Below are positions 6,231 through 60,219 of a stretch of DNA of 64,000 nucleotides, in pieces; the stretch's first letter is position 1, and the number at the start of each line of letters is the position of its first letter. The translations under genes and the position numbers were made by a program. Under the pieces are notes generated by a model. That model was not told the DNA's origin. It saw only the letters and a list, made by a program, of their open reading frames with translations, and ran no database searches. The DNA is from Escherichia phage EP02SG, in sequence record PQ301181, one strand, 5' to 3'.

Positions 6231-8444
6231 TTATTTGGCCGCTTCCACGGCCTTCATGAATTTAACGATTTGAGCGACTTGTTCTTTAGAAAGAGTACCA
6301 CGTCGTCCCATGTAGTCTGACACAATATGATAATTGGTTTCGAATTCAATAACCATTTTATCATCATTATCGTAAGCATTATCTTTAAGCTTATCGAAAA
6401 TTTTAGCACACAATTCTAACTTCTTATTCAGTTCTGTATTAGTAGCACCTGCGAATCGATTCCATCCCCAACGATTATTTACTGTTGAGAGTTTTGCAAA
6501 ATCTTTACTGATTTCTTTGTTTTTAGAGCTAAAATACTTACTAAGGAAGTTAAGCTCTTCATTACGAGTAATATGATTCAAATAAGGCTGTGCTCTACGA
6601 CTTGGTGATACATACTCATCATAATCCACTTTATCGATTAGCGTAATATAGTCATTAATTGATTTTTCGAACAAGCATTCTACTTCACCAAGTTTACGAA
6701 CTTTCTTAGCAATCTGTGGACGAACTACAGTGAACTCTTTAATACCTGACAAATCAGCAATACGGGTCAAGAAATTGGAGTCATAGTTCAACCAACCTTT
6801 ATCTGCGTCAAGACATTCAGCATTAGAACGATTACGAATTACAACATAACCTTGAATCTCATCAGCTTTACCGGCCGGAATAAAGAGATCTTCTGATACC
6901 CAAACATCGTTTTCATTCTTAAAGAACCGATGAGCACTTGGGGATTTAGGACGAGGCTGTGATGAACGTTCTTTAACTTCAATCCACGGTTTAACTAATG
7001 CAAGAATTTCAGATGTCTTATAAAATTTAAGGCTATCACCAGCGAAAATAACCTTTAATCGTTCCAGAAGTTTCATTGCAACTTCATCTTCCGGGTTAAC
7101 GAATAATACGCTACTACCCCATCCGGAAGGAACCTTATCAACGAGTGTTGATGCATCGGTGGAAGTCAAAGCATCGTTCAGAGCACGCATCATTGGTACG
7201 CGGCCTTTCACATCGTCAATAACAATATCAATATGCTTACGACTAATACCTAACAGGCTATTAATTGAAATAGTTGAAGACGAGCTTCCGCTTTCACGAA
7301 TACGACGAAGTCGTGGGTCTGAAACTATATCGTATACGACGCCGAGATTACACCATTCAGGTCCCATTTTAAAACGTTTGTACAACTCAGAATAGGTTAG
7401 TTGTTCTTTAGAATATTTCAGTGATTCAATATTAGAACCGGCTTTTTCCATGTATTTACGAGCAGAGTAACCAAGAGAATCGATTTCACGGAATACATGA
7501 CGTGGATATTCACAATCAATCCATTTCTTAGAATCTTCAGCGAACAATTTAGCATCGATTTCTGCAACGCGTTTATGGATATTTGCTACAGTACGTTTAT
7601 CAAATGACAATGCTTCACGAGACGGGGCTACATCTAGTTCACCCATAGGGAATTTAATATAAGCTGTAGTGCATCGCGTCATCATCCATGTTTGTTCTTT
7701 AATAACACTTCCAATTGGATATACAATACCACCATAAACAGCCATGATATTACCACGTTCACCCCATGGAGCTTCCTTGGCTAAATAAACATCATCGAAT
7801 TCCGGGAAGTATTTGATATCTTTAACACCACGAACTTCTGCAATATCACCTAGAGGACGCATAACATATGCAATTTCGGATGCGAACTTTTCAAAATCTT
7901 CCGGGTTAACCGGTACAACTACTTCTACACCCGTACGGTCATCAGGACCCATCTTATCTACAAAGGTCGGCTTAATTTGTGGACCTGTGTCATCTTGGTA
8001 GATTACGTAACCACGAACTTCACCGTTGTGATAAGACGTAAGGTTAAATGTATCGGTATATGCTAGCGGAGCTTTAGAGCCGAGTCCGAATCCACCAATG
8101 AAATCGTTACTCGATGTTTTAGTTGAAGCAAAATATGAGTTATAGATTCCTGGCTCTTCGTCATTACCTCTAATGGTGAAATCACTCATACCAGGACCAA
8201 AGTCTCGAACTACAAAACGTGGGTCTAAACGACCTGGAGCCTGAACAATAAACTTATCAGTGCAACCATTAAGAATTTGTCCATCAATACAGTTTGTGAT
8301 TAATTCACGTACACAAGCCAATTCTTTGTTTGTATAAAGGTCATTAGACAAAATCTTATAAACTTTGCTATTGCCTTGAATAGTGAATGCTGTGCTCTTA
8401 CCGCCTGAACCAATAATCGTTTCTTTAGCCGTTTCAATAATCAT
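6231..8444 (-). CDS. rIIA: rIIA protein (GHKL-type ATPase fold)
   Basis: 737-aa track ORF; N-term MIIETAKETIIGSGGKS...VRELITNCIDG...GRLDPRFVVRDFGPGMS matches remembered T4 rIIA; adjacent to rIIB. Confidence 0.9.
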   Translation of the reverse strand: MIIETAKETIIGSGGKSTAFTIQGNSKVYKILSNDLYTNKELACVRELITNCIDGQILNGCTDKFIVQAPGRLDPRFVVRDFGPGMSDFTIRGNDEEPGIYNSYFASTKTSSNDFIGGFGLGSKAPLAYTDTFNLTSYHNGEVRGYVIYQDDTGPQIKPTFVDKMGPDDRTGVEVVVPVNPEDFEKFASEIAYVMRPLGDIAEVRGVKDIKYFPEFDDVYLAKEAPWGERGNIMAVYGGIVYPIGSVIKEQTWMMTRCTTAYIKFPMGELDVAPSREALSFDKRTVANIHKRVAEIDAKLFAEDSKKWIDCEYPRHVFREIDSLGYSARKYMEKAGSNIESLKYSKEQLTYSELYKRFKMGPEWCNLGVVYDIVSDPRLRRIRESGSSSSTISINSLLGISRKHIDIVIDDVKGRVPMMRALNDALTSTDASTLVDKVPSGWGSSVLFVNPEDEVAMKLLERLKVIFAGDSLKFYKTSEILALVKPWIEVKERSSQPRPKSPSAHRFFKNENDVWVSEDLFIPAGKADEIQGYVVIRNRSNAECLDADKGWLNYDSNFLTRIADLSGIKEFTVVRPQIAKKVRKLGEVECLFEKSINDYITLIDKVDYDEYVSPSRRAQPYLNHITRNEELNFLSKYFSSKNKEISKDFAKLSTVNNRWGWNRFAGATNTELNKKLELCAKIFDKLKDNAYDNDDKMVIEFETNYHIVSDYMGRRGTLSKEQVAQIVKFMKAVEAAK

Positions 8445-8749: not shown

Positions 8750-9850
8750 TTACGCTGTGAAGATTTTATCCCACATCGCAACAACCGCATCTCGGTTATA
8801 CTTCTTCCATACTGCTTCAGCACGTTTAACTCGAGCTTCGTATGTGTCAGTGAATTCTAATACCGCTTTTGTGTAAAGCGCAACTACTTCTTTCTTAGGA
8901 GTAGAGGAATCAATTTCTACACGCACAGTATCCGGGTCATATTCGAATGTCGCGTGCGGATAATCCTTAAAAACTAACTGAATCACAGGGACACCTTTAG
9001 AGATGGCTTCAATAGAACTATTCTCTACCGTACCCGTGTCAGGACACGTATTGATAAGTGCTTTAGCTGTTTTAAGACGTTCCATGATTTCACTGTGTGG
9101 AGCATCAATAATAACAGGATACTTAGCCGGTGGTGCCCATTTACTAGGACAGTATCCTACACCATTTTCGCCTAGTGCTTTAATCGCTTCAAGAGCAACA
9201 TCAGTACGACGCATTTTAGTGTCATAACGTTGTGCACTAATAATCAGATCAGTCGCCGGAAGAACTTCAGGTTTCTCATTCAAACAAATAACCGGATAAT
9301 CTTCGGCTTCAAACAACGGATTTGCTCGCCAATAATCGTAATCAATTTTGTCAGTCAGACCTGAAGTCATATAACAATATTTGCGTTCAAATTCACGGAA
9401 GGCTTTAGTAGGAGCATAACTCTTACCACCATTCTTATGAATTTGAATAGTCTGGTCCCAAATTTGAACAATGCCACGAGATACCGGTTCAAATGGTGTT
9501 GCCATAAAATTCTTATGAACTTTAGAGAGACCTGCGTCTTTAATTGCCTGAACGGTTAGTTTAGTCGGTTCCATAGTAACAACAAAATCGTATTCATGGA
9601 TGCCGGCTAGTTCAACAATCTTACGAGCCATAGTATAACTCATACCTAGACTGAATTTAGTCAGATGACCAACAGGATGGTGTGTAACTTTCCAGTCACC
9701 AAACGTGTCATTATCAAAGCCGATATAATCAATATCAGCACCGATGGACACAAGATATTTCAACACATTTAAATGTACTGCTTCAAGGCCACCTTGTACG
9801 CGGTCAGGATTAAATGGGACTGCACGAGATGGGATAAACATAACTTTCAT
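8750..9850 (-). CDS. GT-B fold glycosyltransferase, putative DNA (hmC) glycosyl/arabinosyl-transferase
   Basis: 366-aa track ORF; C-terminal GTVENSSIEAISKGVPVIQL resembles the GT4/GT-B E-x7-E donor-binding motif; occupies the slot where T4 has gene 60 and mobA. Confidence 0.6.
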   Translation of the reverse strand: MKVMFIPSRAVPFNPDRVQGGLEAVHLNVLKYLVSIGADIDYIGFDNDTFGDWKVTHHPVGHLTKFSLGMSYTMARKIVELAGIHEYDFVVTMEPTKLTVQAIKDAGLSKVHKNFMATPFEPVSRGIVQIWDQTIQIHKNGGKSYAPTKAFREFERKYCYMTSGLTDKIDYDYWRANPLFEAEDYPVICLNEKPEVLPATDLIISAQRYDTKMRRTDVALEAIKALGENGVGYCPSKWAPPAKYPVIIDAPHSEIMERLKTAKALINTCPDTGTVENSSIEAISKGVPVIQLVFKDYPHATFEYDPDTVRVEIDSSTPKKEVVALYTKAVLEFTDTYEARVKRAEAVWKKYNRDAVVAMWDKIFTA

Positions 9851-11773: not shown

Positions 11774-12199
11774 TTATTTAAATTTAATTTTCTGAAGTGC
11801 ATCAATTGCAGCCAAACGCCCTTGTTCACTTTTAACTGTAATGACCACATCGCCTGATACGATCACCGAACCATCAACAAATTCTATAGAGCCTTTTTTG
11901 AAATCGACAGCTGTATCTGATTCCGGAACTTCTTCAAAGAATTTAAATTCTGCACCATAAAGCAGAATATCACCTTGCATACTATGAATAGTTCGGCCAT
12001 AATCGCCTACGGCTTCTACAGCAATAACCGAAACGCCGTAACCAATCATCTCTTCCACAATAAAATCTTTAGACAATAAAGTAGTATGCAGATTAGTATT
12101 AAGACGTTTACCAGTCGTATTAAGAATTCTCAAGAAATTATCTTCCTGTCCTTTGATAATACGATATTTCTTACCAACTTCAAAACCTTTAAAAGCCAT
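11774..12199 (-). CDS. hypothetical protein (141 aa)
   Basis: Track ORF followed directly by C(UUCG)G terminator hairpin. Confidence 0.5.
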   Translation of the reverse strand: MAFKGFEVGKKYRIIKGQEDNFLRILNTTGKRLNTNLHTTLLSKDFIVEEMIGYGVSVIAVEAVGDYGRTIHSMQGDILLYGAEFKFFEEVPESDTAVDFKKGSIEFVDGSVIVSGDVVITVKSEQGRLAAIDALQKIKFK

Positions 12200-12201
12200 A
12201 A

Positions 12202-12381
12202 TTAACCCTTCTTAAGTAAGTCGTAAAAACCACCGTTCACATGTTTAGGAGCAGAAACCCGACGAGTAGACAGACGATGACATTCAGGGCAAACATCGTT
12301 TTCTCGTTCAGAAATCCTTTTAATTTTTTCATATTCATGACCACAATCTTCAGATTGACATTTATAGTCGTATAACGGCAT
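12202..12381 (-). CDS. FmdB-like zinc-ribbon protein (59 aa)
   Basis: Hand-translated MPLYDYKCQSEDCGHEYEKIKRISERENDVCPECHRLSTRRVSAPKHVNGGFYDLLKKG; CxxxxC...CxxC pattern; packed between flanking ORFs; under 60 aa so absent from track. Confidence 0.45.
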   Translation of the reverse strand: MPLYDYKCQSEDCGHEYEKIKRISERENDVCPECHRLSTRRVSAPKHVNGGFYDLLKKG

Positions 12382-12383
12382 TA

Positions 12384-12794
12384 TTATTCCTTAAAATGTG
12401 CTTTCAACATTTGATACAAAGACCATGCCTGGTCATTATTTTCGATAGTAATCGTCATCACAGGAAATTCAGACAATTCTTCAAGTTCACCAGAATCTTG
12501 CTCTTCGGACGCTTGATATGGATTTTCAACTTCGTCAAAGAACTCTGCTTCATTCGTGGAGAGCCAGATAAAGTTTTCATCAAGGATATCACCGCCTGTT
12601 GCGTATCCAACCGTGCCAGTAGATGTCACAATTTTAGTAGGACGACCAAGATGGTCAACATCTAATACTTTAAATGGTTCCATGCCAAGACGTCGTGCAT
12701 AAATCCCATTATCAGTGTGGTCTTTAATAAACTCTTCTTGGGCACGTTTATCTATAAATTGGTACCATGAGTTAACGCGGAATTTATTAGCCAT
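12384..12794 (-). CDS. hypothetical acidic protein
   Basis: Track ORF 12384..12812 trimmed to MANKFRV; its ATG overlaps the stop of the upstream ORF (TAATG). Confidence 0.5.
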
Positions 12795-13066
12795 TAGTAA
12801 GTTTCCTTCCAATAAGTTGTACCGTTTTCAGTGATTTCACGGAAGATGCCATAGATAGGCATTTCGTCACCGGGTTTTTCGTAAACGTAAACCACTTCGG
12901 TGTAGCATAAAAATTCAGTCCAATTTTTCTGTACAACAACTAAATCAGGATTAAACAGAACATCTTCAAACTCATCGATGTTTGAATCAGTAGTTACGTT
13001 TTTAATGATTTGACGTTTCATAATATTCTCCTCTTGTTTTGATAGGTCTATAGTATCATAGGCCAT
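12794..13066 (-). CDS. hypothetical protein (90 aa)
   Basis: Track ORF with promoter-like region 13050-13077 upstream. Confidence 0.5.
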
Positions 13067-13662: not shown

Positions 13663-14082
13663 TTATGCGAAAGCAGCTTGGATATATTTTTTAATTTGGA
13701 ATTCAGGAACTACCATGAACTGACCAGCGAAAACGATGTTATAAAGCTTAACACCGTCTTCAACCCATTGGTCACTAATGAAGCCGGCGATTTGCTTAGT
13801 TTTCCACGGCGTTCCATCAGTTGCCGAAGCAATAGTGAATTCATGGTCTTTTTCAACAGAAACTGATCTGCATAGTCCCCATTTGAACGCTTTTTCTTCT
13901 GGTTCAATGAATTGGCTTGAGACGTAGCCAATATTACCATTAGCATCACGAACTTTAACTTGGTTACGACCAAAAACCGGATCACTCACAGAAAGAACTT
14001 CAACCAACTTCCCGGCAACTTTAGAGCGAGAAGCAACAGATACATATACGTAATCACCTGTAGAGAGATTTACAATATTCAT
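13663..14082 (-). CDS. hypothetical protein, paralog family member A
   Basis: 139-aa track ORF; shares C-terminal block GFISDQWVEDGVKLYNIVFAGQF.VVPE with the next two ORFs. Confidence 0.5.
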   Translation of the reverse strand: MNIVNLSTGDYVYVSVASRSKVAGKLVEVLSVSDPVFGRNQVKVRDANGNIGYVSSQFIEPEEKAFKWGLCRSVSVEKDHEFTIASATDGTPWKTKQIAGFISDQWVEDGVKLYNIVFAGQFMVVPEFQIKKYIQAAFA

Positions 14083-14091
14083 AATAATTCC

Positions 14092-14547
14092 TTAAGCTTT
14101 ACGAGGAGACACATAGCGAGTGATTTCAGATTCTTTAACAACTCGGAAGTCACCTAAGAATACGATATTGTATAACTTTTCACCATCTTCAACCCATTGG
14201 TCACTGATGAAGCCGCACATAATATCAGTTTTGTTTGGATAACCATATTCGTCGATGAAATCAAATTCTTTATCAGTCCGGAATTCAACGCCTTTGCAAA
14301 GGGCCCATTTGAACTGTACATTAGGTTCAGTAGAAGCAAAATGAGCGCTCACATGAGTTTCCAAGAATTTAGGACTTACGTAAGCGTACTGAGTTTCAGT
14401 TTTTCCAGAACTAGGAATGATTCGAACTTTAACTTCTTTAACACGTCCAGTACCATTAGTACGAAGTCCTACCACTTCAACTAGACGACCTGCAGCTTTA
14501 GAACGAGATGCAGACGATACACGCTTAATTTCACCAATAGTAATCAT
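14092..14547 (-). CDS. hypothetical protein, paralog family member B
   Basis: 151-aa track ORF; N-term RSKAAGRLVEVV and C-term GFISDQWVEDGEKLYNIVFLGDFRVV shared with 13663-14082. Confidence 0.5.
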   Translation of the reverse strand: MITIGEIKRVSSASRSKAAGRLVEVVGLRTNGTGRVKEVKVRIIPSSGKTETQYAYVSPKFLETHVSAHFASTEPNVQFKWALCKGVEFRTDKEFDFIDEYGYPNKTDIMCGFISDQWVEDGEKLYNIVFLGDFRVVKESEITRYVSPRKA

Positions 14548-14611
14548 AATTTCTCTCTCTCTTTGTTTAAATTGAATTCATTATACTCCATCCATCCTTG
14601 GATGTACAACA

Positions 14612-15148
14612 TTAATTAAGGATATTAACCACAGCACTACGTGGAACTACACTAAAATCACCTGCATGAACAACGTTCAGAAGTTCAACACCGTCTTCAA
14701 TCCACTGATCAGTTACCCATCCATTTACTGGACCTGCGAACGGACGTCGAATTGAAACATATTTACACAACAAATCAGTAGGCTCAATAGGCTTAATCAG
14801 AGTACCGTACATACAAGCGATATCCATATCAATACAGATATCTTTAACGGGTTCTACTTCTTTAATCAACAGTTCAAAGTCGGTGCTTGGAAGGGCGGTA
14901 GTAGAAATTGTACCATATGAATTTTTAATTTCTAAGAATAACCAAGGGCCTTCAACTTGTTTGATGAAGTTAACAATAGTGAAACTATTACCTTGAGTGG
15001 CACCTAAAATTTCACAAAACTTTTCATAAGCTCGCACTGAAGCACCATACCAGTTGATTTGTTTTTCATCTTTCAGGATGTAAGTAGCCGTTGTATTGAT
15101 ATTCATAATGTTTTCCTGTTTGGTTAAGATAGAAAGATTATACTCCAA
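14612..15148 (-). CDS. hypothetical protein, paralog family member C
   Basis: 178-aa track ORF; C-term GWVTDQWIEDGVELLNVVHAGDFSVVP matches the family block; own early promoter. Confidence 0.5.
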   Translation of the reverse strand: MEYNLSILTKQENIMNINTTATYILKDEKQINWYGASVRAYEKFCEILGATQGNSFTIVNFIKQVEGPWLFLEIKNSYGTISTTALPSTDFELLIKEVEPVKDICIDMDIACMYGTLIKPIEPTDLLCKYVSIRRPFAGPVNGWVTDQWIEDGVELLNVVHAGDFSVVPRSAVVNILN

Positions 15149-15166
15149 CCATCCTTGGTTGTAAAC
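15137..15166 (-). promoter_or_regulatory. T4-type early promoter with palindromic spacer
   Basis: rc: GTTTAC-AACCAAGGATGGTTGGAG-TATAAT; CAACCA/TGGTTG inverted repeat; variant copy at 14580-14610. Confidence 0.55.
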
Positions 15167-15171
15167 TGGTT

Positions 15172-15849
15172 TTATCGCTGTTTTACACTTAACGGGTCAG
15201 GATTCTCAGGGACATCTTCAAGGCCAAGCGCATAACGCTGAGCATATTTTAACATCAAAATATCTTTAGCACAATCGTGAATACTATCATGGGCAACGAA
15301 TCCTTTTAGCGTACCCATCGGTAATGGACACATACTTAATCCTCGTGTCAACGAGTAAGCTTCGATTGCTGTACGAATATCACGTTGAGCCCAGAATTTA
15401 ACCGGTTCTAATTTATCAGTATCAATATCTGGTTCAAGAACACCTTCATCACGATAGAGATCACGAATCAAATCTACCAAGATCGGGAAGTCAAAGCTCA
15501 TACCACGGCACCACATCTGTGATTTCCATTGGTCAACTTTATTAGCTCGGCAATAGTCTAAAAAGATTTTAATGCCTTCAAGCGTAGTGACATCGTCTTC
15601 AGACGGAGCCAAGTTTTTACGTGCTTCAGCTGATTGTTCTTTCCACCATTTCATAGTGGTTTTAGCGAAAACTCGCTTCCCTTTCTGAGAAGCTAAATTA
15701 AATTTAATTCGTTTACCTCGTTGAACAAGTTCTTCAAATGATTCAACAACTTCAGGGTCGGAATTATATGCAATAACCGCAAGGTCAATAACAGCCGCTT
15801 TTGATGTATTGCCGAATGTTTCAAAATCTATAATAACATCAGTGCTCAT
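15172..15849 (-). CDS. dexA: exonuclease A (DEDDh 3'-5' exonuclease)
   Basis: 225-aa track ORF; N-term IIDFETFGN...AVIDLAVIA and later HDSIHDC match remembered T4 DexA; precedes dda as in T4. Confidence 0.85.
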   Translation of the reverse strand: MSTDVIIDFETFGNTSKAAVIDLAVIAYNSDPEVVESFEELVQRGKRIKFNLASQKGKRVFAKTTMKWWKEQSAEARKNLAPSEDDVTTLEGIKIFLDYCRANKVDQWKSQMWCRGMSFDFPILVDLIRDLYRDEGVLEPDIDTDKLEPVKFWAQRDIRTAIEAYSLTRGLSMCPLPMGTLKGFVAHDSIHDCAKDILMLKYAQRYALGLEDVPENPDPLSVKQR

Positions 15850-41851: not shown

Positions 41852-43540
41852 TTATGAAACAGTCATTACCGTAAATCGTCCAACTTTGCTCATCTGAAGA
41901 TGTTGTCCATAACGTTGAGGGTCATGGTCTCGATGAGAGATAATGAACACATTAGTATTTTGTAAACTTCCAAGAATGGTATCTATAGCCTTAACAGCCT
42001 CAGAATCGACAGCACCATCAAAAACCTCATCAAGAATCAGAGTGTTGATTTTAACGCCAGAGACCTTTTCAGCAATATCTCGCCATGTAAACAACAATGC
42101 GATATCGATACGTGCCTTTTCACCTTGACTAAATGAAGCGTAACTAAAGTCTTCACGACCACGTGATTTTATAGATTCATTGAATTCTTCGTCAATAGAA
42201 AACACGTAATCAGCTTCCATGATTTTAAGATAGTGGTTAATCTGCTTGTTAAACAGAGGCACATATTTTTTAATGATAGCACCTTTAATACCAGAATCTT
42301 TTAACATATCTGTGATAATACCACGATGGTATTTTTCAAGAACGATATCAGATTTTGTTTTAATGATTTTATCAAGTTCTTTTTGAAGCAAAGCTATCTC
42401 ATCGGCATGGTCGATAAATTCCGCTGAGGCTTGTTCTATTGCAGCTTTAACTTTCTTAGCTTTATCAATAGTGGCAATCATTGCTTGTTTCTTGGTACGA
42501 ATATCAGATGCAAGGTCCTGTTTAGTCTTAACATTAGCTCTATATTCGTCCACTAGGACACTCAGATTATCTCTGTGACATGTAAGTTGCTCGAATGAGT
42601 GATTACATTCATGAAGCTTATCGGTAATCTTAGAGACAATAGGATCACCCTGGTGCAACTGTGACGCACAAGTAGGACATGTACCACCATCATGATACAT
42701 CTTAATAACTTTGTTATATGAGTCAATTTTAGATTTAATCAAGAATGCTTCTTGTCCTATCTTGTTGAATGCCTCAGTAGGGTCTTCATCAAGAACGATA
42801 TTAAGTAGACGCTCGTTAGCTTCTTCGATTTCTGCTTTTAATGAACGAGCTTCTTTGGCTAGGTCGTCATACATATTCTGTAGACGCGCTACATTATCAC
42901 CAGATAATTTCTTTTGACGTTCGATATTCTCGTTATAAATCTTAATTTGTTGGATAATACCATCTTTCTTGGCATCGAGAACTTGACCCTGGGAATTAAG
43001 TTCTCGAACTTGAGACTTATTGATTTTATCCATTTCAGCGAGTGTGCCGACTTCTAAAAGGTCTTCGACAAGTTTTCTACGAGCAGGGGTGCTAAGAGCC
43101 ATGAAAGGGGTATACCCTGCCGTCCCAAGCACAACGATTTGTTTAAAAGACGCGTATGACATTCCGATGCTACGTTCAAATTCTTCTTGGAAGTCACGAC
43201 TGCTGGCAGATTCATCAAGACGAACACCGTCAACGGAGATTTCGAAAATATTGGGCTTTTGGCCGCGTTTAATGAAGTATTTTTTACCATCGAATTCCAT
43301 CCAAAGCTCAACTAAGAGCTCTTTCTTGTTCGTGCTATTAATGATTTGCCCTTTCTTAACATCACGAAATGGTTTACCGAAAAGTCCGAAAGTAATGGCT
43401 TCTAACATCGTAGATTTACCACCACCATTTTTACCAGTGATTAATGTCTTTTGGACTTTATCTAATTGGATATCAATAGGATTCCCACCTACCGACATGA
43501 TATTTTGATAACGAACACGATTTAATTTAAATGATTTCAT
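41852..43540 (-). CDS. 46: recombination endonuclease subunit gp46 (Rad50/SbcC-like)
   Basis: 562-aa track ORF; Walker A GKNGGGKSTMLEAITFGLFG, central coiled coil with CPTC hook, signature and Walker B at C-terminus. Confidence 0.9.
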   Translation of the reverse strand: MKSFKLNRVRYQNIMSVGGNPIDIQLDKVQKTLITGKNGGGKSTMLEAITFGLFGKPFRDVKKGQIINSTNKKELLVELWMEFDGKKYFIKRGQKPNIFEISVDGVRLDESASSRDFQEEFERSIGMSYASFKQIVVLGTAGYTPFMALSTPARRKLVEDLLEVGTLAEMDKINKSQVRELNSQGQVLDAKKDGIIQQIKIYNENIERQKKLSGDNVARLQNMYDDLAKEARSLKAEIEEANERLLNIVLDEDPTEAFNKIGQEAFLIKSKIDSYNKVIKMYHDGGTCPTCASQLHQGDPIVSKITDKLHECNHSFEQLTCHRDNLSVLVDEYRANVKTKQDLASDIRTKKQAMIATIDKAKKVKAAIEQASAEFIDHADEIALLQKELDKIIKTKSDIVLEKYHRGIITDMLKDSGIKGAIIKKYVPLFNKQINHYLKIMEADYVFSIDEEFNESIKSRGREDFSYASFSQGEKARIDIALLFTWRDIAEKVSGVKINTLILDEVFDGAVDSEAVKAIDTILGSLQNTNVFIISHRDHDPQRYGQHLQMSKVGRFTVMTVS

Positions 43541-54738: not shown

Positions 54739-55043
54739 TATAATGTTCTCTCAAATTTGTGGAAGCATTTACGGCATTTCAATTTCAAGTTATCAGTGGT
54801 CCAGTTAACCAGTTGGACTTGGATAGTTCCACATTCCGGACATGGATGTTTTGCTGCCGATTTGGCAGCATTTTCACGTCGTTCAACCATTTTCATTATT
54901 TCGTTCCATGCCGGAGGAACGAACTCTTCTTCACCGTGGATTTTATCTCGCTGAACAAATTCAATCTTTGAACTATCGTCAATAAACTTAACCAAGCCAT
55001 GATTAGTGCTCATATCAATATCCTCTAAAAGACGTAGTTTCAT
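54738..55043 (-). CDS. zinc-ribbon protein (101 aa)
   Basis: Track ORF; CPECG...CRKC motif. Confidence 0.45.
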   Translation of the reverse strand: MKLRLLEDIDMSTNHGLVKFIDDSSKIEFVQRDKIHGEEEFVPPAWNEIMKMVERRENAAKSAAKHPCPECGTIQVQLVNWTTDNLKLKCRKCFHKFERTL

Positions 55044-55993
55044 TATAACACCTCAATGGCATTTCGTAAGCCATCCGCTTTCGCATTCAGAGCTTTTAAT
55101 GATTTAGTTTGTTCAGCAATCTGGGCTTCGACTTCTTTCAGACGAGATTTGAGATATTCGCGTTCTTCTCTTAAATTATCAACTTTTTCTGCTTTAGTCT
55201 CTTTAATAGGCTTAGGCTTATACTCATTAGGGTTCTTCAACTTAATTTGAATGCGAGAACTGTATAACATTGAACCGTTATCTTCGGTTTCGCTGAACAT
55301 TTCAACAACATCCATAGTCTGTAATATCATACGAAGTTTATAAGACAGCGAACTAACGGTTTTGTTGCGCTTATTAATTTCTTCGGCTTTCATGGTACCG
55401 AGATTACGTGAGTAGTAATAAGGAACCTGGATATCAATTGACAATGATGCGTTACCATTACCAGTTGGTTTGAATACTGCAGTAACCCAATCTTTAACAT
55501 GAACTTTATTTGTACGACCGTCGCCGCCTGTGAATAATTTACGTGAATGTTTAAAAAGCATATTCACTTGGTTATTGAATTCACAAGCAAATTTATCAGC
55601 AAATTTAGTTTCAGGAATGGTAGATAACCAATCAGCCAAATGAGTCTTTTTAACATCGTTAATAATAGTAAATTCAACTAAATCAGTTTTAGATGTCACA
55701 GATTTAATAAAGCTCGGCTTCATAAAGTTTTTAATGTTATCGCGAGCTACAGTAGAAGATAATAAACGAGAACGTTTGAACCATTGAAGCAGTGTCCCTA
55801 ATGAATGAGAATACGCATTCTGAGTATCTTTACAGATATGATTTTCTTGGCCTGTGTATATACCAAAATCGCGAAGAATACCACTTACTACAACTCGGTG
55901 TGGAACATCAAATCCTAATGAACCAGAAGCACGTTGGGCATGAACGTTAGCGATAAGACCTGCAAAATAATCAACATAATGTGAACGTGTCAT
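55043..55993 (-). CDS. hypothetical protein with C-terminal coiled coil (316 aa)
   Basis: Track ORF; consensus early promoter 56022-56051 directly upstream. Confidence 0.5.
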   Translation of the reverse strand: MTRSHYVDYFAGLIANVHAQRASGSLGFDVPHRVVVSGILRDFGIYTGQENHICKDTQNAYSHSLGTLLQWFKRSRLLSSTVARDNIKNFMKPSFIKSVTSKTDLVEFTIINDVKKTHLADWLSTIPETKFADKFACEFNNQVNMLFKHSRKLFTGGDGRTNKVHVKDWVTAVFKPTGNGNASLSIDIQVPYYYSRNLGTMKAEEINKRNKTVSSLSYKLRMILQTMDVVEMFSETEDNGSMLYSSRIQIKLKNPNEYKPKPIKETKAEKVDNLREEREYLKSRLKEVEAQIAEQTKSLKALNAKADGLRNAIEVL

Positions 55994-56021
55994 AATATTT
56001 TCCTCTAGTTAAGATAGAAAG

Positions 56022-56051
56022 ATTATACTCCAACCATCCTTGGTTGTAAAC
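56022..56051 (-). promoter_or_regulatory. T4-type early promoter with palindromic spacer
   Basis: plus ATTATACTCCAACCATCCTTGGTTGTAAAC; rc gives GTTTAC-N18-TATAAT; identical module at 15137-15166, variant at 57042-57071. Confidence 0.55.
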
Positions 56052-56055
56052 TGAT

Positions 56056-57015
56056 TTATGATTTTAATGCATTCATTGCGTTAAAAAGTTTAGAGTACTG
56101 CAACTGGAGATTCGTTACAACACTTTGAGCATCACGAAGCTTAGCTTGTGCTTTGTCAAGTTCAACAGACAGTTGGTCCATAGTGGCCTTGATTTGATTG
56201 TAATGGTAATCTTCGGCCGGAAGAAGGTCATTAGAAACATTTAGTTTTACTGCAGACAGTTTGCACACATTTGGCAAACCTTTAAACATTGATTTACCCG
56301 AAGTAGAATAAGCACTTAGGACTTCGGCCTGTTCAATTGGGGTCCCAGTAAGCGATGCTTCAAACAATGCATTTTCCTTTTTAAGATTTTTATAATATTC
56401 AGAGTCTTTGTGCCACCATGGCGCAGGAACCTTTTTACCAATAGATACACGAGCCTGGATAGCGATATGGCCCTTATTCTTGATAACGTCGATAATATTA
56501 AGCTCACGAGAATAAATTGCTTTAATCTGGTGAATATTATCACCTAACACTTCCAACGCTTGGTGGAATACACGAGCAACGTTATCATTCTTAGGTTTAT
56601 ACGTAAGAGTGAACTCGTTCTCACTGATAACCATGATTTCCAACTTATCGTAAGTATATTTCAAATGTTTCATGTTAATTGCTTGAGGACGAATACGAGA
56701 AGCAATGGCCATCAGATTGTTAAGGTTATTCCGGAACTGCTTAGCGAAATATTGTCCTTCACCGCCAATACAAAAATTAAGAAGTTTCTGTTTGGCTAAT
56801 AAACGGCTGAACTCACCATTTTTAATGAACTCTTTAACGGGTGTGTTAGTAACGCATTCAAATTGAGTAAACTTACGAGAAGTAATCCCATAATATGAAC
56901 AGATTTCCTCAATCTCTTCAGGAGTCTTTACAGGCATACGGATAGGATTAGGACCTGGGGTATATGCGTTCGAGGTAAATTCTTTGATAAGTTCTCTACG
57001 TGTAATAGAAGCCAT
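56056..57015 (-). CDS. hypothetical protein with C-terminal coiled coil (319 aa)
   Basis: Track ORF; same promoter module upstream (57042-57071). Confidence 0.5.
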   Translation of the reverse strand: MASITRRELIKEFTSNAYTPGPNPIRMPVKTPEEIEEICSYYGITSRKFTQFECVTNTPVKEFIKNGEFSRLLAKQKLLNFCIGGEGQYFAKQFRNNLNNLMAIASRIRPQAINMKHLKYTYDKLEIMVISENEFTLTYKPKNDNVARVFHQALEVLGDNIHQIKAIYSRELNIIDVIKNKGHIAIQARVSIGKKVPAPWWHKDSEYYKNLKKENALFEASLTGTPIEQAEVLSAYSTSGKSMFKGLPNVCKLSAVKLNVSNDLLPAEDYHYNQIKATMDQLSVELDKAQAKLRDAQSVVTNLQLQYSKLFNAMNALKS

Positions 57016-57070
57016 TTTATATTCCTCATGTTGAAAAATTTATTATACTCCAACCATCCTTGGTTGTACA

Positions 57071-58066
57071 TCATTCCTTAAGAAGTTTTACTACTTGAAT
57101 AAGATTAGCTCGTTCTGTTTTATTTTTACCGTTTAAGCCTGCTAATCGTGAGATTTCATCATCAGTCTGTTGAATAGTTACATTAAGTTCGTTAATCAAA
57201 GCTTCAAAGTATTTGATTTGCTCAGCATGTTTTGATTCAAATTTTTGAACCGGAATAACGTCTTGGTTTAGTTCATCAATAAGGTCTTTAAGAGCATCTT
57301 CTTGGTTGATATCATATTCAACTTCTTTTATTTCTTCAACGAGCTCGTCTTTATATCTAACGTCTTTTAGTCCTGGTGCTGGTCCTGAAATCTCTTCTTT
57401 AAGAGTACAAACATATCCAATACGGTATCCAATACCGTCTCGCTTGATAACAACTTCGTCAATAAATCCACAATGTTTAAGTCCAGAGCCGATTACGTCA
57501 AAATATCCTTGACGTCGTCCTTCAAACGTTACACGAACTACTAAGACAGTTTTACCTGCAACCTTTTGAAGCTCACATTTATAAAAGTCAGTTGAACCTG
57601 AATAACGTGGATGAGTTTTAAAGTTCATCTGACGATCTAGGCCCATTTGTAAGCGTGCTGATACGGCCATAAAACGTGTTTGATTCTCGTTAAGATGAGC
57701 AACAATCCATTTCAAAGGCATTTTACACTGTTCACGGCCGAACAAATCAGTACGTCCTAGATTACGCAGGATGTTGTTAGAGTTAATCATCGACAGAACG
57801 TTAAGTTTATTCAGCGCGCTGAAGATTCCATCGGCCATTGATTTTCCGTAACCTTTACACGCTTTAATAAGCGCTCGCGGTAGATTAGTATAGATTTCAG
57901 ACGGCATATGAAAATCAAATTTACTAGTCAGTAATTGATGAACTTGGATAGCAATTTGCTCATAATTAAGTGCTCTTCGATCATTATGGTCTTTAAACCA
58001 TACTTTAATCTGTGAAGCACATAAACCGTTAATTTCATGTTTTACCGCATCAGATGTAATGCTCAT
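57071..58066 (-). CDS. hypothetical protein with C-terminal coiled coil (331 aa)
   Basis: Track ORF. Confidence 0.5.
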   Translation of the reverse strand: MSITSDAVKHEINGLCASQIKVWFKDHNDRRALNYEQIAIQVHQLLTSKFDFHMPSEIYTNLPRALIKACKGYGKSMADGIFSALNKLNVLSMINSNNILRNLGRTDLFGREQCKMPLKWIVAHLNENQTRFMAVSARLQMGLDRQMNFKTHPRYSGSTDFYKCELQKVAGKTVLVVRVTFEGRRQGYFDVIGSGLKHCGFIDEVVIKRDGIGYRIGYVCTLKEEISGPAPGLKDVRYKDELVEEIKEVEYDINQEDALKDLIDELNQDVIPVQKFESKHAEQIKYFEALINELNVTIQQTDDEISRLAGLNGKNKTERANLIQVVKLLKE

Positions 58067-58128
58067 AACTATTTCCTCAGATTGAATTGGAACTCAAAAC
58101 CATTATAACCCGTCCTTGGGTAAAGCGT

Positions 58129-58656
58129 TTATGCGTGAACCGTCTTTAAACGTTCTTCAAATTTCCGAAGAGTACTAATACGTTCTGCTTTCTGTTTTGT
58201 ATAGTTTGCAATACGTTCTGAAGTGAGAGCGTATCGTTCGTTTACTGTTTCTTTCATGAAGTCAGGGATTTCACGAGAAGCTTTAATTTCATCAAACTTA
58301 TCGAGTACTGCCTGGTCTTCAGCGATTAAATTTTCGTACATCTCGATATCTTTCTTGATAAACTCGATATCTTCCTGGGTTACTTTGGATAAACGAGATG
58401 CTTTATCCTTTTTGTACTGCTCGTTAGTTTCACGAGACCAGAATAATGTACGTTTTTTGTTAGTGTTTTTGTAGACTTCCACAATTCCAACTGAATCGAT
58501 GATAGCAATCCAATTCCAGCGAGATTTGAAAATCTGACCTCCGTCCACGGTAATCTCGTTACCATAAGCAACGTCATTAAAGAACTTGCTTTGTGCTTCA
58601 GATTTAAATTTACCGTCGTTATAATTTACCAGGTTGAAAATATCTTTAGCGTTCAT
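58129..58656 (-). CDS. hypothetical protein (175 aa)
   Basis: Track ORF; early promoter 58673-58701 and SD upstream. Confidence 0.5.
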   Translation of the reverse strand: MNAKDIFNLVNYNDGKFKSEAQSKFFNDVAYGNEITVDGGQIFKSRWNWIAIIDSVGIVEVYKNTNKKRTLFWSRETNEQYKKDKASRLSKVTQEDIEFIKKDIEMYENLIAEDQAVLDKFDEIKASREIPDFMKETVNERYALTSERIANYTKQKAERISTLRKFEERLKTVHA

Positions 58657-58672: not shown

Positions 58673-58701
58673 TTGATAGGTCTATAATAACATAACCATA
58701 G
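58673..58701 (-). promoter_or_regulatory. T4-type early promoter with AGGTCTAT/ATAGACCT inverted repeat
   Basis: rc: GTTTAC-N17-TATTAT. Confidence 0.5.
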
Positions 58702-58714
58702 ACCTTGTAAACAA

Positions 58715-59140: not shown

Positions 59141-60121
59141 TTATTTCAGTAAAGTTACTTCAGAGATTTCCTCCCAACCATCTTTATCAGTTGAAATAAA
59201 ATCTGCTACGTAAAGAGCCGTACGTAATGATACATTGCGAAGACGAGATACGTTAGCCTTCATCCAGGACAATGCTTTATACGTTTCTGCATCTGTCAGA
59301 CCACGTTTCTGCATCATGTCAGTAGATAATATTACATCTTCAACTCGAACCATAATCTCTTCATTAGAGTGTACTCCAAGGTCGAGATACACTGAACGAG
59401 ATACTAAAGCTTGAAGGTGTGGGGCAAGTTTCGAACCGCGTTCTAACTCTTTATCGATATCAACGTTTGTAATGAAAACGATAGTACCTTCAAACTCAAA
59501 TTCTTTATCAATACCCTTATCATCGAGATAAGATGACGCAGTGCTCCAACAAACTTTGCGTTTATCTCCAGTATCTAATGCTGCTTTAAGAAGGTTCAAG
59601 ATGTCCATATCTGAGAATACGTCAACGTCGTCGATTAAGAGAACGCTGTCTGCATCACGGTTGAGCCAAAGTTGTTCGTAAAGGCCGATACCAGAGATTT
59701 TACCATTAATGCTTTTGTATTTGATGAAACCATTATCATTAGCGTTATTAAGTGCTTTATCCAGAGAATACGTCTTACCAATACCAGCTGCACCTGAAAT
59801 AATGAGTGAACGAATTTTGCCATCGATAATGCCATTCGTCATCATGTTCATTACTTTAAAGCGTTTGTTGATACGAGTTTTCATATCTTCAGTGCTTTCA
59901 ACGACTGCAACTGGTGATGTCTCAACTCCTTCCATTACGATGTCTGATTTGAAGACCCATACTCCACGTTCAGAACCGTCAATCATAACGAAAATTTTAC
60001 CATCACCTAAGTGGGAACATTCAGGATTAAGCTTTGCCGGGAACCAGGTCTTTGTGGCAACATAAGAACCAGAGATTTCGTTATTACGATAGATACCTTT
60101 TTTGATTTGAACGTTGAACAT
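59141..60121 (-). CDS. AAA-family ATPase
   Basis: Track ORF 59141..60142 trimmed to MFNVQIK (TTGGAGAATAAA-ATG); Walker A GAAGIGKTY, Walker B LLIDDVD. Confidence 0.5.
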   Translation of the reverse strand: MFNVQIKKGIYRNNEISGSYVATKTWFPAKLNPECSHLGDGKIFVMIDGSERGVWVFKSDIVMEGVETSPVAVVESTEDMKTRINKRFKVMNMMTNGIIDGKIRSLIISGAAGIGKTYSLDKALNNANDNGFIKYKSINGKISGIGLYEQLWLNRDADSVLLIDDVDVFSDMDILNLLKAALDTGDKRKVCWSTASSYLDDKGIDKEFEFEGTIVFITNVDIDKELERGSKLAPHLQALVSRSVYLDLGVHSNEEIMVRVEDVILSTDMMQKRGLTDAETYKALSWMKANVSRLRNVSLRTALYVADFISTDKDGWEEISEVTLLK

Positions 60122-60219
60122 TTTATTCTCCAATTTACTCATTTCGTTTCGATAGGTCTATAGTATCATATCCTAAAAGCATGTACACTACTTTTTTAAA
60201 AATATTTTAACCCCCTAAA

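Follow-up and report, generated by a model that had tools for sequence, protein, structure and literature searches.

Are three neighbouring phage genes of similar size relatives of one another, or unrelated genes whose products happen to end in the same kind of helix, and what might such an array do for the phage? This question is raised by a locus of Escherichia phage EP02SG (sequence record PQ301181), of which a stretch of 64,000 nucleotides, referred to here as the window, was analysed. Between positions 55043 and 58066 the window carries three consecutive open reading frames (ORFs), designated A, B and C, on its minus strand. A first-pass annotation, made from the sequence alone, had described them as early effectors in which differing N-terminal domains are attached to a common C-terminal coiled coil, each gene having its own early promoter; the coordinates and lengths that it gave for the three ORFs were confirmed exactly (Table 1). 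The account favoured here, with confidence a little better than even, is that A, B and C form a tandem array of very diverged paralogs from a T-even superfamily (NrdC.3/NrdC.4, NrdC.5 and NrdC.6), an early counter-defence or host-interaction family.

Family membership and remote relationships

A, B and C are real, conserved genes. Each has a GAGGAA Shine-Dalgarno sequence 7-8 nucleotides (nt) ahead of its ATG, and tblastn finds homologues of the A type in 653 phage records, of the close B type in 133 and of the C type in 741, nearly all of them from T-even phages of Escherichia, Shigella, Yersinia or Salmonella. The segment 54000-60200 shares 97.8% identity with Escherichia phage S143_2 (Mosigvirus, Tevenvirinae) and is fully covered in more than 140 T-even phage records. 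The S143_2 counterparts of the three genes are flanked by nrdC (glutaredoxin/thioredoxin) and by a gene for an NrdC.10-like ATPase, with one strand used throughout; in the window, 80 of the 81 non-overlapping ORFs, A, B and C included, lie on the minus strand. The locus lies in the dispensable nrdC-mobD accessory region of a Mosigvirus, and the surrounding region also encodes the Lon inhibitor Pin together with redox and nucleotide-metabolism genes.

All three proteins are members of known, uncharacterised T-even families, that of B being the family of the sole characterised member. T4 carries these genes as a string: nrdC.3 (308 amino acids, aa), nrdC.4 (333), nrdC.5 (340) and nrdC.6 (275). 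A is 55% identical to T4 NrdC.3 (E 3e-118) and matches phrog_1435 over residues 1-316 (E 4e-102), the PHROG in which T4 NrdC.3 and NrdC.4 are both found. B is 25% identical to T4 NrdC.5 over 311 residues (E 2e-10) and matches DUF7235 over residues 15-318 with 409.4 bits (cutoff 30); T4 NrdC.5 and orf82 of the Dhakavirus IME08 match the same family with 420.6 and 397 bits, and phrog_2351 is common to all three. C is 29-32% identical to NrdC.6 proteins of the T4 group (Tequatrovirus, Dhakavirus; E 4e-19, the value for T4 NrdC.6, to 3e-33) and matches phrog_2257 over residues 1-331 (E 1e-126), as do the NrdC.6 proteins of T4 and other Tequatroviruses. A scan of IMG/VR with the A alignment found only 7 loci. 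The B family is very narrow, since a search of 1.84 billion representatives with B returned its own cluster only.

The relationship between these families is not apparent at close range. BLASTP between A, B and C gives nothing significant, and hhalign with shallow profiles, built from close relatives only, assigns the pairs a probability of at most 1%. At this level the statement that the N-terminal domains differ is correct. It does not survive comparison of deeper profiles, for which one alignment per family was assembled from the nrdC-mobD regions of T4, several Tequatroviruses, IME08, ACG-C40 and Pinarejo and from IMG/VR contigs. NrdC.3 and NrdC.4 then align over about 205 columns (97% probability, E 5e-11). 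NrdC.4 and NrdC.5 are linked with a score of 34-39 (E 1-4e-4) and NrdC.5 and NrdC.6 with a score of 27 (E 5e-3), in both cases with none of 60 column shuffles as good, and NrdC.3 and NrdC.5 with a score of 26. Column-shuffled controls score 14 +/- 2.5, and in the three weaker links 0, 0 and 1 of 60 shuffles came up to the score observed, while the unrelated neighbouring families NrdC.8, NrdC.10 and NrdC.11 score 10.7-20.4. A merged NrdC.5 and NrdC.4 profile recovers NrdC.3 with 91% probability (E 1e-6, 153 columns) and NrdC.6 with 51% (E 1.5e-4), the latter with a score of 38.8 against a null of 13.8 +/- 1.9 and a null maximum of 19.5. The scores observed in the superfamily test (80, 52, 39, 34 and 27) are above both the shuffled and the real-family controls.

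These comparisons suggest that NrdC.3, NrdC.4, NrdC.5 and probably NrdC.6 constitute one superfamily, a grouping proposed here. A and B can be regarded as remote paralogs with high confidence, and C is very probably a remote paralog of both, with moderate confidence. Because the chain of matches from NrdC.3 through NrdC.4 and NrdC.5 to NrdC.6 indicates remote homology of the globular parts too, A, B and C appear to be full-length diverged paralogs, and a model in which unrelated N-terminal domains have been joined to one common module is contradicted. The differing N-terminal domains are therefore best described as strongly diverged, not unrelated.

One helix pair is aligned in all of the inter-family profile matches and follows the motif ...LS....L.NF... 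// F..xF..n...l..ASRL..G. Its segments are RSRLLSSTVARDNIKNF ... FACEFNNQVNMLFKHSRKL in A, GEFSRLLAKQKLLNF ... FAKQFRNNLNNLMAIASRI in B and LNVLSMINSNNILRNL ... IVAHLNENQTRFMAVSARL in C, which has both this motif and the C-terminal ending in common with A and B. AlphaFold2 models of A and B, used for secondary structure only, have the same order of elements (helices, long helix, three strands, helix, two strands, linker and long helix), and the last element is modelled as a single long helix at residues 275-315 in A and 267-318 in B. The predicted architecture of both is an N-terminal helical region with the conserved helix pair, then a small beta3-alpha-beta2 unit, a variable linker and a C-terminal coiled-coil helix of about 45 residues. 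Foldseek searches of BFVD with the two models return their own families and weak matches of low template modelling (TM) score to proteins of T4-like Serratia and Klebsiella phages; the same Serratia phage PS2 protein is weakly matched by both of these low-confidence models. Foldseek against the PDB gives nothing at E <= 0.001, and PDB sequence-profile searches give nothing relevant.

The C-terminal helix as conserved core

The first-pass annotation saw the three genes as a family with a shared C-terminal module, and to this extent it is supported: they form a family with a common C-terminal helix, and in each protein no other part is as well conserved. When identity in the last 45-60 residues was compared with that in the remainder, pair by pair, the helix was the more conserved part in all four pairs: 71% against 55% for A and T4 NrdC.3, 44% against 29% for B and T4 NrdC.5, 58% against 31% for C and Tequatrovirus NrdC.6, and 65% against 42% for the NrdC.4 proteins of T4 and IME08. 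All families also have a common ending with the motif R..kL..a#..LLK, as can be seen when their termini are right-justified: GLRNAIEVL(K), RLEQALQLIK, KLFNAMNALKS, KLNNALNALN, KLRAAVLALK, NLIQVVKLLKE and KLIKIVDLLKS. Because these endings are alike in every family, the helix fits a constraint common to all paralogs, for example self-association, mutual association or one shared partner.

The prediction of coiled coils was examined with two heptad scores, a 28-residue scan set against 300 shuffles of the same protein and a 42-residue scan of the a/d core, comprising 14,642 windows in the 81 non-overlapping ORFs. In the 28-residue scan z is 5.4 for A, which no shuffle out of 300 matched, 3.2 for B, matched by two shuffles, and 3.1 for C, matched by one; six neighbouring proteins are not significant. 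In the 42-residue scan B comes first among the 81 ORFs, followed by A, with C in seventh place, the best segment ending at 97-98% of protein length in all three; its a/d positions score 9.5-10.5 of 12 in A and B and 8.5 of 12 in C. A 562-aa ORF at 41852-43540, presumed to encode the Rad50-like gp46 and hence a rough positive control, ranks 4th. The heptad register runs unbroken over about six heptads in A and B, whereas in C it is interrupted at AGLNGKN and then resumes. If a coiled coil is required to run for 4-6 heptads or more without interruption, on a hydrophobic a/d core and in a helix that lacks Pro and Gly, then A and B possess the coiled coils that had been predicted for all three, and that of C is broken. 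Weak Pfam matches to FapA, DivIC, Mer2 and other coiled-coil families (E 0.03-0.9) were dismissed as compositional.

Two relatives depart from this pattern. T4's own NrdC.6 (275 aa; 12067-12894 of the T4 sequence analysed) departs after residue 259 from the other Tequatrovirus NrdC.6 proteins with which it was compared (295 aa) and has no counterpart of their conserved terminal helix, probably as a result of a frameshift in the T4 reference lineage. The RB69 'NrdC.5' (300 aa) is family-like to about residue 240 and then continues into an unrelated C-terminus without a coiled coil; the RB69 record contains here either a frameshift or a mistake in sequencing.

Promoters and turnover of the array

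The promoter 29-mers of A and B differ at a single base and have a 23-nt core in common, and that of B starts directly after the stop codon of C (57071-57073). The published consensus for early promoters of the T4/PST group is TTTACW-N17-TAYWAT (PMC4122927); the A promoter matches it exactly and the B promoter has one mismatch (TGTACA). There are 15 matches to a T4-early-like pattern in the window against 4.1 expected, a number reached in 0 of 100 shuffles. The claim of a full early promoter for every gene is correct for A and B but fails for C, ahead of which the full early module is absent. The element found there has 11 nt between a -35-like hexamer and TATAAT, which is not canonical sigma-70 spacing, and was not among the promoters called by the scan; it is homologous to a T4 element ahead of nrdC.7 that is likewise of the short form (GCTTTATACCAAGGATGGTATAAT). 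Since this upstream module is short and uncalled, transcription of C probably reads through from the promoter that serves the nrdC.8-like gene upstream, or else starts at a weak -10-only element. No minus-strand terminator-like site was called between that promoter and C, and none was called in the three intergenic regions.

The spacer of the A promoter contains the palindrome CAACCA-AGGA-TGGTTG, and a palindrome lies in the B spacer as well. Further copies occur on the minus strand of the window ahead of a second array (Table 1), in T4 ahead of nrdC.3, nrdC.4 and nrdC.7, and in the IME08 sequence at position 8758. The centre, CCA-AGGA-TGG, is constant among copies, and the outer pairs vary in a compensatory manner (CAACCA/TGGTTG, CATCCA/TGGATG, AGCCA/TGGCT, CCACA/TGTGG and TATACCA/TGGTATA). 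As RNA the palindrome folds into a 6-bp hairpin, which in many copies has GGAG after it. It could be a protein-binding site, a read-through RNA structure or a processing signal.

The content of the array varies between phages. The window has genes of the nrdC.3, nrdC.5 and nrdC.6 types and lacks nrdC.4, T4 has all four, and IME08 has nrdC.4, an nrdC.5-type gene (orf82) and nrdC.6. ACG-C40 keeps nrdC.6 only, together with a fused remnant (6805-7213 of the analysed sequence) in which a 72-aa N-terminal piece of NrdC.5 is followed by the coding sequence of the NrdC.3 C-terminal helix. Pinarejo keeps only an unannotated remnant of 45 codons from the nrdC.6 C-terminus (7001-7135 of the analysed sequence). 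Modular swapping of the C-terminal helix, considered on account of tblastn matches to the C-terminus only in these two phages, was rejected because the matches are deletion remnants.

Table 1. Positions of the genes, helices and promoter elements of the array and of neighbouring and similar features in the window
Feature	Position	Strand	Details
Gene A	55043..55993	(-)	316 aa; T4 NrdC.3 orthologue; phrog_1435; precomputed Pfam PF26897
C-terminal coiled-coil helix of A	55046..55174	(-)	about residues 274-316; a/d core L-R-L-L-V-I-Q-L-L-A-L-I-L
Early promoter of A	56022..56050	(-)	TTTACA-17-TATAAT; sequence TTTACAACCAAGGATGGTTGGAGTATAAT
Spacer palindrome of A promoter	56046..56031	(-)	
Gene B	56056..57015	(-)	319 aa; Pfam DUF7235 (PF23882); phrog_2351; T4 NrdC.5 family
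C-terminal coiled-coil helix of B	56062..56217	(-)	about residues 267-318
Early promoter of B	57042..57070	(-)	TGTACA-17-TATAAT
Spacer palindrome of B promoter	57066..57051	(-)	
Gene C	57071..58066	(-)	331 aa; phrog_2257; T4 NrdC.6 family; precomputed Pfam PF26899
C-terminal heptad segment of C	57074..57226	(-)	about residues 281-309, break AGLNGKN, terminal helix ending LIQVVKLLKE
Truncated promoter-like element ahead of C	58102..58126	(-)	GCTTTAC-CCAAGGACGGG-TTATAAT; full sequence GCTTTACCCAAGGACGGGTTATAAT
NrdC.8-like gene	58129..58656	(-)	175 aa; 83% identity to T4 NrdC.8
Early-type promoter of NrdC.8-like gene	58711..58684	(-)	TTTACA-16-TATTAT
NrdC.10-like gene	59141..60142	(-)	333 aa; 78% identity to T4 NrdC.10
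Second array	13663..15165	(-)	tandem paralogs
Second-array ORF	14612..15148	(-)	178 aa
Second-array ORF	14092..14547	(-)	151 aa
Second-array ORF	13663..14082	(-)	139 aa
Promoter module ahead of 14612..15148	15137..15165	(-)	as ahead of A and B
Promoter module ahead of 14092..14547	14580..14608	(-)	as ahead of A and B
Spacer palindrome, second array	15146..15161	(-)	
Spacer palindrome, second array	14589..14604	(-)	

The NrdC.8-like gene has its own early-type promoter, and its product has a charged, helical-looking C-terminus with a weak heptad score (rank 12 of 81); profile comparison shows no relation of this protein to A, B or C. The NrdC.10-like protein, whose gene adjoins the array, is an uncharacterised early ATPase with the P-loop GAAGIGKT and weak Pfam matches to AAA/STAND NTPases. 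The second tandem paralog array lies just downstream of a 225-aa ORF (15172-15849) that is a candidate for the exonuclease DexA, and its ORFs have the C-terminal block ..SDQWVEDG.KLYNIVF.G.F.VV.. in common. In many GenBank phage records, genes of the nrdC.3, nrdC.5 and nrdC.6 types are called 'thioredoxin' (e.g. 'thioredoxin (x8)'), a label that has probably spread from the nrdC.x gene names; a Pfam search detects no thioredoxin-like domain in A, B or C.

Possible function, alternatives and known systems

The only functional evidence found is for T4 nrdC.5. Having lost part of its accessory genome, an evolved T4 clone no longer plates on ECOR17, and deletion of dsr1 from ECOR17 restores its plating; plasmid-borne ECOR17 dsr1 protects MG1655 from the T4 mutant, and T4 nrdC.5 supplied in trans enables the deletion mutant to infect dsr1 cells again (Srikant, Guegler & Laub 2022, eLife, PMC9391042). 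The deletions of the evolved clones, one of which removed nrdC.5, spared all genes that are essential on laboratory hosts (PMC9391042). Since one T4 member of the family defeats Dsr1, it is likely that the array is a set of counter-defence genes. The early effectors of the first-pass annotation thus find a precedent in B's family, and two of the three genes have early-type promoters; an anti-defence role for A, B and C themselves, like any role of their coils, is proposed here from sequence comparison. According to a 2026 preprint, Dsr1 has a TPR sensor domain that recognises the phage major capsid protein (PMC12803255), and an inhibitor that occupies or cross-links this sensor would be a plausible but purely speculative idea; a literature search found no follow-up on the mechanism of T4 nrdC.5. 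No catalytic-looking motif common to the families was noticed on inspection by eye, no dedicated test being made, and binding proteins therefore seem more likely than enzymes. A NHICKDTQNA block is invariant in NrdC.3 and absent from NrdC.4.

Taken together, these observations are consistent with the following scheme. A and B would be transcribed from their own near-identical sigma-70 early promoters, and the array would supply non-enzymatic binding proteins immediately after infection. Each globular part, evolving fast, would be directed at a host target of its own, with immune sensors or effectors such as Dsr1 the likeliest, while the conserved coiled coil would let the proteins form homo- or hetero-oligomers or dock to a partner that does not vary. 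Host range may then be tuned as cassettes are duplicated and lost. In its fullest form, with the whole NrdC.3/4/5/6 array as one diversifying family of immune antagonists, globular domains directed against different sensors or effectors, coils that oligomerise or dock and promoter cassettes that drive copy gain and loss, the scheme is tentative and somewhat doubtful. Nothing suggests a new kind of system.

Several points count against the paralog and counter-defence interpretation. C is attached by the weakest link, about 65 aligned columns at 51% probability, and literature searches found no functional data for the nrdC.3, nrdC.4 and nrdC.6 families. With no more than 25% identity to T4 NrdC.5, B may not share its specificity for Dsr1. 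The AlphaFold2 models are of low confidence, with a predicted local distance difference test (pLDDT) of 57 for A and 44 for B, because the A and B alignments are shallow, and no characterised relative was found by fold and sequence searches. The coiled coils were scored by two home-made, uncalibrated heptad measures.

The proteins may instead be host-takeover factors unrelated to immunity, early binders that redirect conserved host machinery (transcription, nucleoid, membrane or proteolysis) and use the coil for dimerisation. Early promoters would be expected to suit such a role, as would a region shared with Pin and with redox and nucleotide-metabolism genes; a host partner that does not vary could account for the strong conservation of the C-terminal helix, and Pfam and PHROG searches detect no defence-related domain in A, B or C. 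Nevertheless, anti-defence is the sole phenotype known from the superfamily, the phage can do without the region on laboratory strains (PMC9391042), and fast globular divergence with copy gain and loss among close relatives is typical of arms-race genes and not of factors that act on conserved host machinery. Host takeover appears rather unlikely, although it is the most probable of the alternatives.

A lower probability is assigned to the idea that these are largely neutral or selfish ORF cassettes whose copies multiply, degenerate and are rearranged by recombination between the repeated early-promoter cassettes, in the manner of PeSL elements (promoter-early stem-loops), so that size and coils reflect common descent only and no function now held in common. 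The near-identity of the A and B promoter modules speaks for it, as do the additional copies ahead of another paralog array, the deletion scars in ACG-C40 and Pinarejo, the truncated T4 NrdC.6 and the divergent C-terminus of RB69 NrdC.5, and PeSL-mediated gene shuffling is documented in T4-type phages (Arbiol 2010, PMC2839356; Comeau 2014, PMC4122927). Neutral turnover is, however, difficult to reconcile with intact full-length ORFs retained in hundreds of phages, with strong conservation of the C-terminal helix and with the clear phenotype of T4 nrdC.5. Least probable, and already disfavoured, is the view that the three genes are unrelated and that their similar lengths and helical C-termini are coincidental. 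The empty BLASTP results and the shallow-profile comparisons speak for it, but with diverse alignments the scores that link the families far exceed those of shuffled and real-family controls and come from one and the same motif region, and the families have a common C-terminal ending as well as, in A and B, the same secondary-structure order.

Relative to the earlier description, the present analysis adds the superfamily of NrdC.3/4/5 and probably NrdC.6, identifies the terminal coil and ending as its conserved core, and limits the promoter claim to two of the three genes. T-even phages are workhorses of phage biology and phage therapy, yet genes of the nrdC-mobD block still carry the label 'hypothetical' or the mistaken label 'thioredoxin'. 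Treating the array as one family would turn the single observation that nrdC.5 beats Dsr1 into a candidate set of anti-defence genes and would single out the conserved terminal helix. If the paralogs do target different defences, the array could help to explain differences in host range among closely related therapeutic phages. As a prioritised list of candidate counter-defence genes, A, B and C are of moderate interest.

Several known systems invite comparison. In PeSL cassettes a stem-loop lies upstream of the promoter. The present array resembles them in that near-identical early promoters are repeated ahead of single accessory ORFs, in a hyperplastic region where genes are gained and lost; it differs in that the palindrome (loop AGGA) is inside the -35/-10 spacer and no T-run follows. 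No stem-loop was found directly upstream of the A and B promoters, the only stable hairpin being the one inside the spacer. DSAD1 of SPbeta-like phages, an anti-DSR2 protein, blocks a SIR2-type NADase defence and is a functional analogue of the possible role of T4 NrdC.5, although it belongs to another phage group, has another target and shows no sequence or structural relationship in the searches made. DSAD1 blocks DSR2 by binding it directly.

The closest comparisons are with the T4 group itself. A has a C-terminal helix nearly identical to that of T4 NrdC.3, while the window differs from T4 in lacking an nrdC.4 gene. C differs from NrdC.6 of the T4 group in a globular part that is 31% identical, in being 36 aa longer and in possessing the terminal helix that T4's own NrdC.6 lacks; nonetheless, 92% of C can be aligned to the Tequatrovirus NrdC.6 of 295 aa, and identity over the final 60 residues is 58%. 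Finally, although B and T4 NrdC.5 are only 25% identical and anti-Dsr1 activity is known for the T4 member alone, B matches DUF7235 over its full length, is similar in size (319 and 340 aa), occupies the equivalent place in the nrdC.3-nrdC.6 string (in the window, without nrdC.4) and shares with T4 NrdC.5 both the C-terminal coiled coil and the terminal motif, KLFNAMNALKS in B and KLNNALNALN in T4.

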